NCBI GenBank assembly: GCA_951406725.2
Contig: OX597839.1
Coordinates: 36,022,001-36,086,000, forward strand
Length of the DNA stretch: 64,000 nt
Source: Octopus vulgaris
Taxonomy: Eukaryota
Direction: 5' to 3'
Positions 2,422-55,633 of this stretch are shown here, one piece after another. The notes beneath the pieces were generated by a model. That model saw only the letters and a list, made by a program, of their open reading frames with translations. It was not told where the DNA came from and made no database searches. How positions within the stretch are numbered: the stretch's first letter is position 1; each line of letters opens with the position of its first letter. The position numbers and the translations under genes are program-made.

Positions 2422-2424
<3 letters not shown>

Positions 2425-2555
2425 GGGGGGGGAGTTCACGAAAAAACAAAAGACGAAGACAGGCGGTGTAAAAACAAACAGATGTATTAGTATAACGCTC
2501 AGGAATAGAAAAAAAGTATTTTACATTTCGAGCCTACGCTCTTCTACAGAAAATA
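2422..2555 (-). mobile_element. Family D HHR-bearing mini-element, copy 1 (HHR 2519-2552)
   Basis: Minus strand UUU-CUGUAGA-A-GAGC-GUAG-GCUC-GAAAU-GUA-AAA; flanked by (TA)n; homologous to four other copies in the window. Confidence 0.75.
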
Positions 2556-9697: not shown

Positions 9698-9974
9698 TGT
9701 ATGTAGAAACTTCATCTGCTCTTAAAGTGCAAATAACAGTCAGAAGCTATTTTCGGAATTCTCGACATGAGAAAACCTGAGAGATGCCAGTCTCACCCAG
9801 TGAAATACAGCTGCACTATTTGACGACCGCACTTACTCATGCATAAGACGCACCCCTAATTCAATGTTGAATCTTCGTACAAAACATTTTTTCATTCATA
9901 GTTTTAGCTTTGCTCCGTCAGTTTTTTTTTGTTTTTTTTGTTATTGCTATTTTTTTTCAGTAAAAAATCAAGTA

Positions 9975-10141
9975 TAGGCGTAGGAGTGGTTGTGTGGTAA
10001 GTAGCTTGCTTACCAACCACATGGTTCCGGGTTCAGTCCCACTGCGTGGCACCTTCGGCAAGTGTCTTCTACTATAGCCTCGGGCCAACCAAAACCTTGT
10101 GAGTGGATTTGGTAGACGGAAACCGAAAGTAGCCCGTCGTA

Positions 10142-10231
<90 letters not shown>

Positions 10232-10460
10232 TGTGTCTGTGTGTGTATGTTTGTGTATCTGTGTTTGTCCCTCCAACATCCTTGACAACCGATGCTGGTG
10301 TGTTTACGTCCCCGTCACTTAGCGGTTCGGCAAAAGACACCGATAGAATAAGTACTAGGCGTCCAAAGAATAAGTCCTGGGGTCGATTTACTCGACTAAA
10401 AGCGGTGATCCAGCATGGCCACAGTCAAATGACTGAAACAAGAAAAAGGGTATAAAAGAG
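9975..10460 (+). mobile_element. SINE family A, full length with internal (TA)n(TG)n
   Basis: tRNA-like head (tggttgtgtgg / ggttcagtccc), accttcggcaagtg CORE-like motif, internal microsatellite, tail cagtcaaatgactgaaac; about 20 related copies in the window. Confidence 0.9.
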
Positions 10461-11347: not shown

Positions 11348-11620
11348 ATACACACACTCACGCACATATTTATTATAGAGGAAAATGTGTGCCTGATGAA
11401 TATTAATGAAAAAAATAAACTGGAAGCAACATAGGACAAATAAACATGGAAATCCTCTCGTCAGCTATGGTGACCAGGCGGCAAGTGCAGTTTCCGCACA
11501 GCTTCTATATTAAACGGACGGTGCGTACCGGTCCAAATCATGATATGATTACATCATTATTTGCCTAAATTTACTAGTGCCACACATTTGGAATTTACCA
11601 AAGAAAAGACTAAGATATAT

Positions 11621-11787
11621 GTGTAAACAACAAACAGATGTATTAGTTTAACGCTCGGGAAGTGAGAAAGTATTTTACGTTTCGAGCCTACGCTCTTCAA
11701 CAGAAAGGAACGGGAATAAATAGGGAGAGAAAATAAAAAAGGTTTAGTGGCGCATACCGGACAGCAATCAATCATGGCGAATGCCGA
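11621..11787 (-). mobile_element. Family D mini-element, copy 2 (HHR 11673-11706)
   Basis: Minus strand UUU-CUGUUGA-A-GAGC-GUAG-GCUC-GAAAC-GUA-AAA; abuts (TA)n. Confidence 0.75.
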
Positions 11788-15187: not shown

Positions 15188-15859
15188 ATGTATGTATGTA
15201 TGTATGTATGTATGTATTTATTTATGTATGTATGTATATATGTATGTATGTGTGTATGCATATTGCAAAGGAAATTTTTAAAACTCAAATAGAATAAGAC
15301 AGCGTAGGACGAACAAGATTTTCTGAACATTGTCTTTGCTTAAAGCTTAAGAAGGAAGGAAAAGAGTCGACGTTTCGGAGACTAGTTCTTCACCAGAAGA
15401 AAGGTACGTATAAAAGAAAAGTAAAGGTGGTGTATGAGAGGAAAAGAGATAGACATAAGACAAAAATATCCTGAGAGGAGTTAGAGGCCAGGTGAGAATG
15501 TGGTTCTATGGGTGAGGGAGTTAAGAAAGGAAGAACGAACGTATGTCTTTCTGCTTTGGTTTGTCTCTTCCCCAGTTGAGAACCGCTTTTGACTTGTTTA
15601 GGTCCCTGTAGCATATCAGTTCGATAAAAATAAAAAAAGGGCTGATAAAATAAGTGTCCCACTAAACAAAATATAAGTACTGCGATCGATTTTTTATCGA
15701 CTGACCCTACAAGGTAGTACTTCGGTAGAGATGGAGTTCAATGACTGGAAAAGTGAAAGGGCATATAAGTGTATAATAATTTAATAAATAAAACATATGC
15801 ATATATACATACATATATGTACGTACCTACCTCTACGTGTATATATACATGCATATATG

Positions 15860-17119: not shown

Positions 17120-17294
17120 ACGGGAAGGTTTACGAAAATAAACAAAAGACGAAGGCAGGTGGAGTACAAACAAACAAATGTATTAGTATGGCGCTCAGGA
17201 ATAGAAATAGAACAAGTCTTTTACGTTTCGAGCCTACGCTCTTCGACAGAAAGATACACAGAAAAAGAAACAAGGAGAGAAACAAGGAGAGAAA
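17120..17294 (-). mobile_element. Family D mini-element, copy 3 (best HHR, 17217-17254)
   Basis: Minus strand UCUUU-CUGUCGA-A-GAGC-GUAG-GCUC-GAAAC-GUA-AAAGA; 5-bp stem I, 4-bp stem II, palindromic ACGU stem III; TA repeats on both sides. Confidence 0.8.
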
Positions 17295-18019
17295 TATATG
17301 TATATATATATATATATCGGTCTGTATGGCCACCGGTATAATTATTTTAATGAATATATCCTCATTTTATACGCATATATATATATATTCATGTGTTGAG
17401 TCCTATTTTTCCATTTTCTATCGCAAAACATCCATACAAACACACACGCAAGCATATATGTGTGTGTGTATATTACCAACCTAATGCTATCAATTGCTCC
17501 TACTCTGCCTAATACCGCAACTACATTCCGCTCCCACCTCCTGCCTACACCACTGCTACCATTTACGGCCGCCACCATTAACCTTCATCGCTACTACCTC
17601 TTCCACTTCCCGCCCGTCAGCCTCTTTCCTCCGCCAACCCACCATCAGCTACAACAACAACAATAATATCACCATCACCGCCACAGATCATCCATTGCTT
17701 TTGCCAACACCAGCACCGACACCATCGTCTTTCATTTTTAATTTAATCTCTCCTCTCCTTTTGCATACTGTTCTAACCTCCATCTTTAACTCTACAACGA
17801 ACGCTGCCGCCGACACCACTTTGTGCTCCATCATAACCGCAACCGCCACATCGGTCTTATGACAACCAACACGCATTCACATTCACATAACACACAACAT
17901 TCATATAAGCAAAGACACACATACACACACACACAGAAACGCAAACACACACACACATACTCGCGCACACACACACACACACACACACACAGAGGGAGAG
18001 AAATTTAACTAAGATAATT

Positions 18020-25645: not shown

Positions 25646-26040
25646 TCTTTTTACGCTTTTTACTTGTTTCAGTCATTTGACTGTGGCCATGCTGGAGCAC
25701 CGCCTTTAATCGAGCAACTCGACCCCTGGACTTATTCTTTTGTAAGCCCAGTACTTATTCGATCGGTCTCTTTTGCCGAATCGCTAAGTAACGGGGACGT
25801 AAACACACCAGCATCGATTGTCAAGCAATCCTAGGGGGACAAACACAGACACACACACGCATATATATACATATATACGACGGGCTTCTTTCAGTTTCCG
25901 TCTACCAAATCCACTCACAAGGCTTTGGTCGGCCCGAGGCTATAAGTAGAAGACACTTACCCAAGGTGCCACGCAGTGGGACTGAACCTGGAACCATGTG
26001 GTTGGTAAACAAGCTACTTACCACACACACACACTCCTGT
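25646..26040 (-). mobile_element. SINE family A, full length
   Basis: Reverse complement of the 9975-10460 type. Confidence 0.9.
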
Positions 26041-31427: not shown

Positions 31428-31809
31428 ATGGCTGTGAGATAAGTAGCTTGCTTACCAACCACATGGTTCTTGGTTCAGCCCCACTGCAAGTGTCTTCTAC
31501 TATAGCCTCGGGCTGACCAATGCCTTGTGAGTGGATTTGGTAGACGGAAACTGGAAGAAGCCCGTCGTATATATGTATATATATGTGTATGTGTGTGTAT
31601 ATGTTTGTGTGTCTGTGTTTGCCCCCCCTTCCAACATCGCTTGACAACCGATGCTGGTGTGTTTACGTCCCCGTAGCTTAGCGGATTGGCAAAAGAGACC
31701 GATAGAATAAGTACTAGACTTACAAAGAGTAAGTCCTGGGGTCGATTTGCTCGACTAAGGGCGGTGCTCCAGCATGGCCACAGTCAAATGACTGAAACAA
31801 GTAAAAGAG

Positions 31810-37250: not shown

Positions 37251-37561
37251 AATATATATATATACACACATATACATACATGTGTGTATGTGTATGTTTC
37301 TGTATGTGTGAGTGTATATATGTATATGTGTATGTATATCAGCAAATGAGTTTGAAAAATAAATAATAGTATCGATTTATTCGACTAAAATCCTTCGAAG
37401 CGATGCTCCAGAATGGCCGTAGTCCAATGACTTTCACAAGTAAAATCTAAGAGTTAAGGGACACGTCTCGAAATATAACAATATTTCAACAAACGATTTC
37501 ATATCAGGGATCTTATAAAACAAATTCATAAACGTATATGTGTGTGGAGCGTGTATAAACA

Positions 37562-37726
37562 CCGCTAGCCACTACACATTCTCTATTTTCTCTCCTTGTT
37601 TCTTTCTGTGGCAGAGCGTAGGCTCGAAACGTTAAAGACTTTTTCAGTTCCCAAGCGTTATACTAATACATCTGTTTGTTGTCTACACCAGCTGTCATCG
37701 TCTTTTTTTTTTTGTGAATTCTCCCT
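37562..37726 (+). mobile_element. Family D mini-element, copy 4 (HHR 37601-37638)
   Basis: UCUUU-CUGUGGC-A-GAGC-GUAG-GCUC-GAAAC-GUU-AAAGA; 3' end abuts (TA)n. Confidence 0.75.
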
Positions 37727-37879
37727 ATATATATATCTTTTATTAAACTTTTAATACTTTTGATATATTTTTAAAATAATATAAATTAAATTAATTTTAT
37801 GTATTGGCTTATGTCTTTCATTGTTTGATTTGCCTAAAAGTGGTTTTATCTCTAATATAATATAATATATATATATATA

Positions 37880-38016
37880 AACTTATAAATAAGGGCTAAA
37901 GAAAATTATTTCTATGCCAATATGCTGATAACAGACTTTTAAATCGTCAATTTCCACATATTGTTTACTCGGTACAGAAAACACGAAGAATTTTCTTTAC
38001 CCCTTATTTATAAGTT
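37880..38016. repeat. 28-bp inverted repeat (27/28) in a TA-embedded insert
   Basis: aacttataaataagggctaaagaaaatt (37880-37907) / aattttctttaccccttatttataagtt (37989-38016). Confidence 0.85.
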
Positions 38017-39425: not shown

Positions 39426-39651
39426 ATATTCTGTTGTGTCTGGGGAGAGTCATTGTCTTTTAGTGCCTTATTATTTAACACACTCACCGGTAAAATTTCC
39501 ACTTATTCCTTATTTTTATTTTCTAAAATTTTCGTTGCGTCTTGCAACCTTTTCAATAGTCTTCAAGACTAAATAAGCGGAAATTTTACCGGTGAGTGTT
39601 AAATAATAAGGCACTAAAAGAGAATGACTCTCCCCAGACACAACAAAATAT
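39426..39651. repeat. ~80-bp fold-back inverted repeat enclosing an HHR-like motif (39523-39559, minus)
   Basis: Arms 39426-39507 and 39572-39651 are near-perfect reverse complements; whole insert (39371-39651) is flanked by (TA)n. Confidence 0.9.
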
Positions 39652-40803: not shown

Positions 40804-40896
40804 TCGCTCAGAATGATGTCAGCAGATCGTCAGACATCAGCGTTTCGACGTGATTTAGTCTCCTCAGAGATGAACTTCAGCGAATATTCTGAGCGA
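40804..40896 (-). ncRNA. Decayed type I HHR-like motif within an 11-bp inverted repeat
   Basis: Minus CAUCU-CUGAGGA-GAC-(8 nt)-GUC-GAAAC-GCU-GAUG; outer tcgctcagaat/attctgagcga. Confidence 0.5.
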
Positions 40897-41285
40897 AATC
40901 GAAACTTTCGTTAATATATAAAACGTACATATACATCGACTCTTGCACATGGCGTCCAAAATATTGAATTTCATTTGTATTTGAGTAAGGTTTGTGATAG
41001 TAGGTGCATTGCTGGTGATGACTGTGATAGGGTTGTTATTGTTGTTATTAGTGATGGTGGTAATAAGATTGTAGTGGTGTCGTGGCAGTCGTTGTGATAA
41101 TGGCGGTACTGACGGTTGCTAAAAAGCCAAGAAGGAAATACAAAAAGAAAAGTAACAAAACTGATGGAATTTTAAAGACGAGGAAGGAGTGAGATTACAA
41201 CTGCCTTATAAGACGTTTAATTGATGGAACAACTTCAAAATACTGAATTTTGGTAGTGTTAGTTGTAATATTGTTTTCAAAGTAT

Positions 41286-41830
41286 GCGTAGGAATGGCTG
41301 TGTGGTAAGTAGCTTGCTTACGAACCACATGGTTCCGGATTCAGTCATACTGCGTGGCACCTTGGGCAAAGTGTCTTCTACTATAGCTTCGGGCCGACCA
41401 AAGCCTTGTGAATGGATTTGGTAGACGGAAACTGAAAGAAGCCATGATAGATCGTTAGCTCCTACACGCATTTTTTTCTCTCCTTGTTTTTTTCTGTGTA
41501 TCTTTCTGTCGAAAAGCATAGGCTTGAAACGTAAAAGACTTGTTCTATTTCTATACCTGAACGCCATACTAATACATTTGTTTGTTTGTACTCCACCTGC
41601 CTTCGTCTTTTGTTTATTTTCGTAAACCTTTCCGTAATATATGTGTGTGTGTATATGTTTGTCCCCCTCAACATCGCTTGACAACCGATGCTGGTGTGCT
41701 TACGTCCCCGTAACTTAGCGGTTCGGCAAAAGAGACCAATAGAATAAGTACTAGGCTTACAAAGAATAAGTCCTGGGGTCAATTTGCTCGACTAAAGGCG
41801 GTGCTCCAGCATGGCCACAGTCAAATGAGT
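41286..41830 (+). mobile_element. SINE family A interrupted by family D copy 5
   Basis: A head to gaaagaagcc (41442); resumes at about 41637 with atatgtgtg...cagtcaaatga. Confidence 0.88.
41440..41636 (+). mobile_element. Family D mini-element, copy 5 (HHR 41501-41538)
   Basis: UCUUU-CUGUCGA-A-AAGC-AUAG-GCUU-GAAAC-GUA-AAAGA; the first stem II pair is A-U instead of G-C. Confidence 0.8.
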
Positions 41831-53583: not shown

Positions 53584-55050
53584 CAGGCTATCCCCAACAC
53601 ATGTATACACATATTGAATGATTCATTAAGTCAAGTGTTTATTAAAATGTTTCATTTTGAAAATTGAATAGGATCTACAGATAGAATTCGTGTTTTTTTT
53701 GTTTTATGAATACCTGTTTTCATACTGATGGCCGGTTCTGGTCCAGGCCCTGCTGATAACGTGAAGCGATAGAATCTGAAACATTAAAAAAGATTTGGTT
53801 CGGTGTTTGTACACATTTTCTTTAAATGGCTGCCCTCGAGTCGCCGATTGTCGCCGGTGTTGTACATAAACTTCATCCTTTTAAGTTCTTCCGTAAAATA
53901 AACTTTTGTGTTGTGAGATCCGGTGAACGCAAAGAGTATTCTACTGAACCTCTTCGTCTAATCCACTTTGATGGCAAAATTTCATCAACGTAGGTCCTTT
54001 TACATTATTGGTGTAGTATGGCGGTGTCGCAATTTGTTGGAAATAAATCTCTACATTTTTAAAATCGTCTTGAATGCTTGACATGACACATTGCCGTAGC
54101 AAGTTCAAGTAAACAGGACCAATCATAGTACCGTCAGAAAAGAAATGTCCAATTAAACCATTTGGGTGATAAGTTGAACCATATTTTACTTCACCCTGTG
54201 AGAAATTAAAATGTTTTTCATGTGTAATAGGCAGATTCTCGGGGTCCCCAGTAGGTACAAGTGTTGCGATCAACTGAGCCATTCAATTTAAATGTAGCCT
54301 CAGGTGTGGCTGTTGGGTAAGTAGCTTGCTTACCAACCACATGGTTCCGGGTTCAGTCCCACTGCATGGCACCTTGGGCAAGTGTCTCCTACTATAGCCT
54401 CGGGCCGACCAAAGCCTTGTGAGTGGATTTGGTTGACGGAAACTGAAAGAAGCCCGTCGTATATATGTATGTATATGTATATATGTGTGTGTCTGTGTTT
54501 GTACCCCTCCCCAAAATCGCTTGACAACCGATGCTGGTGTGTTTACGTCCCCGTTGGCAGTTCGGCAAAAAGAGACCGATAGAATAAGTACTAGGCTTCC
54601 AAAGAGTAAGTCCTGGGATCGATTTCCTCGACTAAAGGCGGTGCTCCAACATGGCCATAGTCACATGACTGAAACAAGTAAAAGCGTCATGACTCCAAGC
54701 AATCATTTATGAGAACATACGCATTTTCTACACACCTTGCGAAGAACCACTCGCAAAACATTGAGAACATGGATTATTCTTGGAATGTAAATTTGTCAAT
54801 GATTGCACTTCAAAAGGCGATAGACACCAAATTTTGGGAATACTATCTCACGGCTTGCTTCCTGCACAGATTTTCTTGAAATCTGGAAATAAGTTTCCTA
54901 GTGTCCCCCTTTATTTTTGTTTTTTGTTTTCTGGGATCGTCAGTATCTGCAGCCTTCCAGAGGGCTTCTTGTGGACATTCTGAACAGCAGTTCTAATCTG
55001 CTTTGCTTCAAACTCACCGCTAATGAGAATGAATCTAAGTCGTATAGAAA
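53584..55050 (-). pseudogene. Decayed Tc1/mariner transposase element, interrupted by a SINE
   Basis: Minus-strand fragments VQNVHKKPSGR (HTH linker), FCEWF, WSHE|ATFKLNGSV, GLIGHFFSDGT..GPVYLNLL, YFQQ, WIRRRG..YSLRSPDLT, DSIASRYQQ..DQN; TIR-like TA-caggctatccccaacacatgtatacac at 53582-53610. Confidence 0.9.
54301..54686 (+). mobile_element. SINE family A inserted into the transposase
   Basis: Near full-length match to family A; tca repeated at both junctions. Confidence 0.9.
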
Positions 55051-55241: not shown

Positions 55242-55633
55242 TTTCACACACACACAGATGCCTATGTCATTAGTCAGTTGTTCGTAAATGAAAGAAAAAC
55301 AGTACACCTTAAAAAAGAACTTGAACAGTCAAATTTTATATACATACAAACATACATACATATATACATATACATGCATATATACATGTGTGTGTGTAAG
55401 TATATATATATATATATATTATATTAAATTAGAGACAAAACCACTATTAGGCAAATCAAACAATGAAAAACTTAAGCCAATACATAAGATTATTTAATTT
55501 ATATTATTTAAATATATAACAAAATTATTAAAAAAATATAATTAATATCACACTACGATCGTTTCATGCCTCCTAAATCTGATTTTTCCCTGTAAGTTTG
55601 GATTTATTCCCTAATATTTATTATTAATTAATA

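Follow-up and report, generated by a model that had tools for sequence, protein, structure and literature searches.

The closest described systems to the repeat family analysed here are the minimal type I hammerheads of Penelope-like retroelements. In the consulted part of PMC4209133, the published descriptor of these motifs fixes cuganga, so that A is required at position 6 (A6), and a motif without stem III is described as able to work only as a dimer via its ACGU palindrome. Neptune and Naiad elements prefer (TA)n targets, and Naiad elements thrive without hammerheads, according to the excerpts of PMC8557442 used here. For PAc, the Poseidon element of the green anole, the relevant passages of PMC11167929 place the cut site at 26 nt and the starts of reverse transcription at 111-118 nt into the ORF (85-92 nt apart), name uncut RNA as the dominant substrate of an element whose ribozyme cuts only with protein, and describe ribozyme-dead anole Penelope mutants that insert normally in vitro, with no RNA ends at the cut site. 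In a complete pairwise mutagenesis, the C3:G8 swap was the one CUGA change that escaped low activity, and none of the others was rescued (PMC9901934, in the part consulted). A6C strongly lowers the rate in Mg2+, and a natural A6C hammerhead cleaves at <0.1 per minute and prefers Mn2+ (excerpts of PMC3088659 and PMC7151607); PMC7151607 doubts the relevance of Mn2+ in cells, and the consulted part of its text does not contain A6U. Our literature search, made mostly by title, returned no natural A6U family, and a 2017 study of dimer-cleaving Penelope hammerheads could list such variants; one literature match to CUGUCGA was a chance string and was discarded. Here we describe a dispersed repeat family whose minimal hammerhead carries U at position 6 (U6) in an otherwise largely intact core. 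The family bears on why Penelope-like elements keep slow hammerheads at all, given that one of them transposes in vitro without cleavage and that whole clades lack the motif.

Five copies in the window

The window, meaning the whole stretch of 64,000 nucleotides that was analysed, is AT-rich and contains many microsatellites and short repeats, among them SINE-like repeats that presumably resemble those of octopuses. An earlier note, prepared from the letters of the window, had proposed a five-copy mini-element at 2519, 11673, 17217, 37601 and 41501. A blastn search with the 17217 region recovered the four other copies at 77-94% identity, and alignment confirmed all five as homologous and added their strands (three minus, two plus). 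The copies and the repeat that one of them interrupts are as follows.

17217..17254, minus strand: minimal type I hammerhead motif (alignment, descriptor and column-by-column read)
17121..17292, minus strand: copy 17217, entire; U-rich leader, hammerhead and ~100-nt tail, flanked on both sides by (TA)n
2423..2553, minus strand: copy 2519; 5' truncation within stem I, which keeps 3 bp; A7, U15.2; flanked on each side by (TA)n
11590..11786, minus strand: copy 11673; hammerhead at 11671-11708; U7; 3-bp stem I
37550..37725 (5' boundary approximate), plus strand: copy 37601; hammerhead at 37601-37638; G7, A9C, U17; (TA)n at its end
41444..41636, plus strand: copy 41501; hammerhead at 41501-41538; sister of copy 17217, 94% identical
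41280..41828, plus strand: SINE-like host repeat with a microsatellite between its two halves; interrupted by copy 41501
near 9970-10432, 25673-26027, 31428-31791 and 54307-54668: uninterrupted paralogues of the host repeat, microsatellite empty in all four

The copies are solitary, lie 4-20 kb apart on both strands and reach a density of 78 per Mb in this window. Made up of U-rich leader, hammerhead and tail, the individual copies are 130-200 nt long and share their 3' end but not their 5' end; the element thus extends beyond the 38-nt hammerhead flagged earlier. The tail ends at (TA)n 99, 102, 92 and 103 nt past H17 in four of the five copies. The 5' ends all differ (~4 to ~83 nt ahead of C3), and three of them adjoin (TA)n. 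The longest 5' part (~83 nt ahead of C3) belongs to copy 11673, which begins after (TA)n and whose 3' end has no microsatellite; the leader of copy 17217 carries a 12-nt duplication.

Two side observations concern the surroundings of these copies. On the minus strand, copy 11673 continues into ~230 nt (11365-11590) that are unique in the window and run up to a (TG)n tract; this stretch contains a lone CUGACGA half-core and is possibly a longer form of the element. Directly behind copy 37601 lies an AT-rich repeat with short inverted ends (37749-38016); it may be a miniature DNA transposon, and another copy of it is present near 55419-55533.

Motif structure, descriptor search and folding

The 17217 motif consists of a 5-bp stem I, the core bases C3 U4 G5 U6 C7 G8 A9 followed by an extra A, a 4-bp stem II with a tetraloop, GAAA, a palindromic ACGU replacing stem III, and A17; U6 is position 17246, N7 is position 17245, and the predicted cut falls at 17222/17221. 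This anatomy matches the published consensus of Penelope-type minimal type I hammerheads, as represented in the consulted part of PMC4209133. Compared with the type I core (C3 U4 G5 A6 N7 G8 A9, G12 A13 A14, A15.1-U16.1, H17), all elements are present except A6, and copy 37601 lacks A9 as well. The core described earlier as uniform is thus intact apart from U6 in four copies, while A9C in copy 37601 had been overlooked. Likewise, the GAAAC box ascribed to every copy is broken by the U at 15.2 in copy 2519. Stem I is reduced to 3 bp in copies 2519 and 11673 and comprises 5 bp in the remaining three, stem II pairs in 5/5 copies, and the base at position 7 is A, U, C, G and C across the copies, all as originally reported. 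In the five-copy alignment stem II was 100% paired and stem I was paired in 84% of cells; ACGU occurred in 4/5 copies, the extra A in 5/5 and G10.1-C11.1 in 4/5.

The exception at 10.1-11.1 is copy 41501, whose hammerhead has three private transitions (G10.1A, C11.1U and a G-to-A change in the loop) although its tail is 97% identical to that of copy 17217. The A-U pair that had been put forward as a compensated change is real, but it carries no significance: 87/500 shuffles equalled the covariation score of the five-copy alignment. Amplified covariation was absent, the stems being simply invariant. Because the pair is private to one copy, with neither G10.1A nor C11.1U reaching 2% in any of the four sequencing runs described below, we rejected it as evidence for the fold and read it as private decay. 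An A-U pair at 10.1-11.1 also occurs in 3/56 rows of Fig. S3 of PMC4209133.

The unmodified published descriptor had 0 window matches. Freeing position 6 gave four, all from this family, whereas 100 local shuffles averaged 0.01 per window; copy 37601, with its damaged core (A9C), failed even this version. The 38-mers folded no better than shuffled sequences (z-scores: -0.2 to -1.6). Local Rfam scans produced no hammerhead match at E-values up to 10, and they likewise missed the published A6 motif in control locus L123 (see below). Over the whole window Rfam produced 352 matches, of which the 150 listed were microsatellite-driven miRNA matches, and ARAGORN found no tRNA gene.

Three further motifs were recorded on the minus strand. 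An unrelated, single-copy motif at 15369-15396 resembles a minimal hammerhead in which position 6 is G; it follows a U-rich leader, its stems are damaged and its tail ends ~115 nt on at a microsatellite, so that it may be a second non-A6 core or plain decay. At 40833-40867, within short inverted repeats, canonical-looking CUGAGGA and CGAAAC boxes accompany a long stem-III-like arm, and this motif fails the descriptor and has no other copy in the window. One match to a U3-A8 version of the minimal hammerhead descriptor, at 39526-39556, may be due to chance.

Position-wise conservation in public contigs

Contigs from four public runs were aligned to positions 17121-17298 at 80% likeness, and differences were listed from 2%. 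The runs were X1 (organism A; 15,577 contigs), X7 (organism A, only guessed to be RNA; 206 contigs), X9 (organism D; 5,907 contigs) and X16 (organism F; 5,858 contigs), for a total of 27,548. Because contigs lose rare variants and tend to end where the sequence varies, the variation listed is understated; depth is not copy number, the copies are related to one another, and haplotypes are not resolved.

Position 7 was the sole site of 178 at which three alternative bases were listed, and all four bases were present in every run, each above 4% (C/U/G/A in %: 41/30/7/21 in X1, 20/31/5/44 in X7, 24/45/8/22 in X9 and 28/41/27/4 in X16). The comparison suggested by the earlier note therefore came out in its favour, with position 7 far more variable than its neighbours and position 6 fixed: U6, found in 5/5 window copies, had no variant at 2% or above in any run. 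Extending this to 13 core positions (U6, C3, U4, G5, G8, A9, G10.1, C11.1, G12, A13, A14, A15.1 and U16.1), 0/13 had a variant of at least 2% in the four runs, vs 17/54 adjacent tail positions (Fisher's exact test, p 0.014). With the whole 3' flank as reference (17/96 positions variable) the contrast was not significant (p 0.095), because no variants are listed for 17121-17162. A17 and the extra A similarly had no variant of 2% or more in any of the four runs. Elsewhere in the motif, variants made up 3.5-8.6% at the CpG of 15.2/16.2 and as much as 21% at the first loop base; the rest fell on positions 10.4 and 11.4 and on the outer stem I pairs. Loop bases 2-4, which were expected to be free, were also invariant in the four runs, a pattern suggestive of sequence recognition or of a shallow history.

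The hammerhead is the best-conserved part of the element. Contigs covered it 1.5, 7, 4 and 370 times more deeply than the tail in the four runs (370 in organism F), which indicates that diverged subfamilies keep the motif and change their flanks; subfamilies were 63-80% alike in the tail (20-37% different) and 79-92% alike in the motif (8-21% different). Among the five window copies, 28/38 hammerhead columns were invariant vs 41/91 tail columns (p 0.002).

Tandem or inverted layouts of the pseudo-LTR type were absent from the window, and one back-joint contig was found among the 15,577 of X1. This contig joins 17285 back to 17214, which gives a head-to-tail unit of ~72 nt holding the whole motif; such a rare natural tandem could form the dimer in cis.

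Insertion pattern and element identity

Copy 41501 occupies the microsatellite spacer of its host repeat, and the same spacer is empty in the four window paralogues. A common 3' end, variable 5' ends and filled versus empty sites would be the marks of target-primed retro-insertion with 5' truncation. The features of an endonuclease-positive (EN+) Neptune-type element, namely a fixed short tail past the hammerhead, variable 5' truncation and (TA)n targets, were found: the tail has its fixed length and ends at (TA)n in four of the five copies, and the 5' ends are five different ones. The repeats likely represent the 3' ends (terminal repeat and tail) of a retroelement of the Penelope-like group, probably a Neptune-type one, and their motif very probably descends from a Penelope-element hammerhead. 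The description of the family as successful was borne out, as it is a very abundant dispersed retroelement with a preference for microsatellites. The label retrozyme-like was not, since the copies are solitary and show no tandem monomers.

Searches for coding capacity returned no Pfam match to RT or GIY-YIG among the 140/201 filtered window frames that were scanned, and tblastn of the L123 protein (see below) gave no match in the window, where the copies themselves are too short to reach an ORF. Short motifs of the element had no relevant match in a text search of the Naiad supplement on octopuses (PMC8557442, the part consulted), a format in which line breaks can hide matches.

Coral-type control family

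The most similar published motif, judged by eye, is the Neptune motif of Acropora digitifera. Sequences from outside the window were searched with an exact family pattern and with a relaxed control pattern in which position 6 could be A, C or T and G was excluded; for the relaxed pattern the metagenome scan covered 3/64 parts. The exact pattern gave 0 matches in the metagenome contigs searched. The relaxed pattern gave 0 matches in viral contigs and, in the other sequences covered, only an A6 coral-type family of 134 matches in 124 loci, nearly all of them the Acropora Neptune motif of Fig. S3 (PMC4209133). Position 6 was A in 133/134 of these matches and U in one, and position 7 was C in 129/134.

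In locus L123 a frame with a GIY-YIG match (E-value 0.00024, just below the Pfam cut-off) and an upstream cysteine linker precedes the motif by 34 nt. The L123 protein was found within 400 nt upstream of the motif in only 10/124 loci, of which 99 have at least ~300 nt to inspect. As few control loci reach the endonuclease gene, short stubs are nothing unusual in an autonomous element, and the earlier description of the window family as non-autonomous cannot be drawn from stubs; its copies may be 5'-truncated remains of an autonomous element. Between the window element and the Neptune control loci there was no similarity outside the motif, and the likeness within it was built into the search pattern, so the Neptune label is to be taken as a lead, one helped by the (TA)n preference described in PMC8557442.

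Some control loci had features of their own. Ten (L001, L021, L023, L055, L058, L059, L063, L091, L110 and L111) carried a second, adjoining motif in the opposite orientation (5' inversion), and the lone A6U lay in one of the two motifs of L091 (338-365 region). Loci L122-L124 combine animal Penelope-type sequence and a GIY-YIG frame in assemblies filed as bacterial, probably through host contamination.

Predicted dimer folds and the position of the cut site

For the 17217 motif the double hammerhead, at a computed -14.7 kcal/mol, was less stable than a pair of monomers (-16.0) and than the most stable co-fold (-22.4); the corresponding values of the A6 control motif were -9.5, -24.6 and -26.6 to -30.0 kcal/mol. 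The active dimer fold is therefore predicted to be favoured in neither, and its predicted cost is lower in 17217 because the inactive monomer is weaker there (-8.0 vs -12.3 kcal/mol). In the 17217 monomer U6 pairs with A15.1 with a computed probability of 0.42.

The 3' ends of four of the five copies lie 92-103 nt past the cut site, near the 85-92 nt computed for PAc, and all five copies span the predicted cut site.

Interpretation of the U6 core

Our working interpretation, which we put slightly below even chances, is that the repeats are Penelope-like stubs carrying a throttled hammerhead with U6 whose fold is still selected. We consider continued selection on the fold after U6 became fixed likely, because the other core positions are conserved in three organisms. 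That residual cleavage is the property under selection is a closer call that we would not quite bet on. In the mechanism that we envisage, an RT/GIY-YIG protein would nick (TA)n, and reverse transcription would start ~100 nt 3' of the cut site and in most cases break off early, leaving stubs. Cutting is predicted to be slow, to occur in the dimer and to be aided by the element's protein. As every copy spans the predicted cut site, the templates would be uncut RNA, in which case a slower ribozyme would cost little or might even leave more template. Some residual cutting, which would release the element from host read-through transcripts, could keep the remaining core bases in place. Against this interpretation, and above all against fast cleavage, speak the low activity of altered CUGA cores (PMC9901934, in the excerpt used) and the reduced rate of A6C in Mg2+, together with the absence of covariation, the invariant loop bases, the non-significant contrast with the whole 3' flank and the low predicted stability of the double hammerhead.

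A rather unlikely alternative is that the motif does not cut and is kept as the signal by which the Penelope protein binds its template RNA, so that A6, which serves catalysis only, was lost and position 7 is free. Loop bases 2-4 and stem II, invariant and without covariation, would fit a binding signal, as would a cut site spanned by all five copies, the strongly deleterious A6 substitutions with no pairwise rescue (PMC9901934, in the excerpt used) and the ribozyme-dead anole mutants that insert in vitro, with no RNA ends at the cut site (PMC11167929, likewise in excerpt). However, conservation of the catalytic G8 and G12 and of the NUH triplet is as strict as that of any other position, and an exact catalytic set including the ACGU palindrome would not be needed for pure binding.

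We regard as improbable that the motif is a passenger, i.e. that a founder lost function by A6U and was amplified anyway, with position 7 a mutation hot spot (a CpG when C). The weak stem I, the absence of covariation, folds no better than shuffles, the modest contrast between core and flank (p 0.014 or 0.095, depending on the flank) and the prosperity of Naiad elements without hammerheads (PMC8557442, as excerpted) all agree with a passenger. Yet CpG decay does not account for the transversions to A and G at position 7, which together make up 12-49%, and the CpG partner G8 stays below 2%. Nor would a passenger be expected to differ by 20-37% between subfamilies in the tail and by 8-21% in the motif, or to be covered 370 times more deeply than the tail in organism F.

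Less probable again is a switchable U6 core, poor in Mg2+ and putatively active in Mn2+ or when bound by protein, on the model of the phage motif with its natural A6C. Such A6C motifs are efficient in Mn2+ but cleave poorly when the metal is Mg2+ (PMC7151607, in part), the selection pattern fits a live ribozyme, and the inactive monomer is much weaker than that of the A6 control (-8.0 vs -12.3 kcal/mol); against this, PMC7151607 itself questions the importance of Mn2+ in cells, and A6U does not occur in the part of it consulted. A non-LTR retrozyme spreading via small circular RNAs is very improbable, although retrozymes have type I hammerheads thought to derive from Penelope terminal repeats (PMC7229834; bioRxiv 10.64898/2026.07.22.740005; both consulted in part) and one X1 contig contains the ~72-nt head-to-tail unit, as each of the five window copies stands alone, with its own 5' end and a shared 3' end, and not in a tandem array of ~170-400 nt units, and no joint is listed in the RNA-labelled X7 (206 contigs, weak evidence here).

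In a further reading, which we think rather unlikely, the U6 class as a whole would be a working conditional ribozyme, switched on by the element's protein, by dimer formation or by Mn2+. If it were true, a conditional U6 ribozyme would be among the commonest ribozyme motifs in these genomes and would have been missed by searches that fix CUGANGA. Such searches miss whole high-copy families, so animal ribozyme counts may be too low. The U6 family is also a natural experiment, in which a base needed for fast catalysis was lost and the remaining core was kept across related species.

Comparison with known systems

As in the metazoan Penelope minimal hammerheads described in the consulted part of PMC4209133, the motif has a U-rich leader, a stem I of 3-5 bp, an extra base between 9 and 10.1, G10.1-C11.1, a 4-bp stem II with a tetraloop and an ACGU palindrome (15.2-16.2) replacing stem III, and it occurs mostly as single truncated copies. 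It shares 22/28 bases, counted by eye, with the common coral-type motif, for whose likeness the search pattern was built. Unlike the published motifs it carries U6, where A6 is present in 56/56 rows of Fig. S3; A17, fixed here by the contig data, occurs in 5/56 of those rows. Position 7, highly mixed within this family, is C in 129/134 control matches.

The A6C hammerhead of phage Bcep176 (PMC3088659, PMC7151607; both in part) also has a natural pyrimidine at position 6 in an otherwise intact core. It is a single phage motif with C6 and demonstrated slow, Mn2+-favoured cleavage, whereas the present motif has U6, is a candidate ribozyme of the minimal dimer type and belongs to a very high-copy animal repeat. 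PAc, in the consulted sections of PMC11167929, similarly combines an insertion end ~90-100 nt past the cut site with AT-rich targets and uncut templates; in contrast to the present family it is autonomous, its ORF starts inside the hammerhead, and its cleavage has been shown and depends on protein.

Non-LTR retrozymes (PMC7229834; bioRxiv 10.64898/2026.07.22.740005; excerpts) are likewise non-coding, with a type I hammerhead of probable Penelope origin. They are tandem, have mostly canonical hammerheads and form circular RNAs (PMC7229834, in part), whereas the copies described here are solitary, 5'-variable and minimal. Minimal Penelope hammerheads, the extra base and high-copy stubs were thus already known, and a U6 core fixed family-wide appears to be new.
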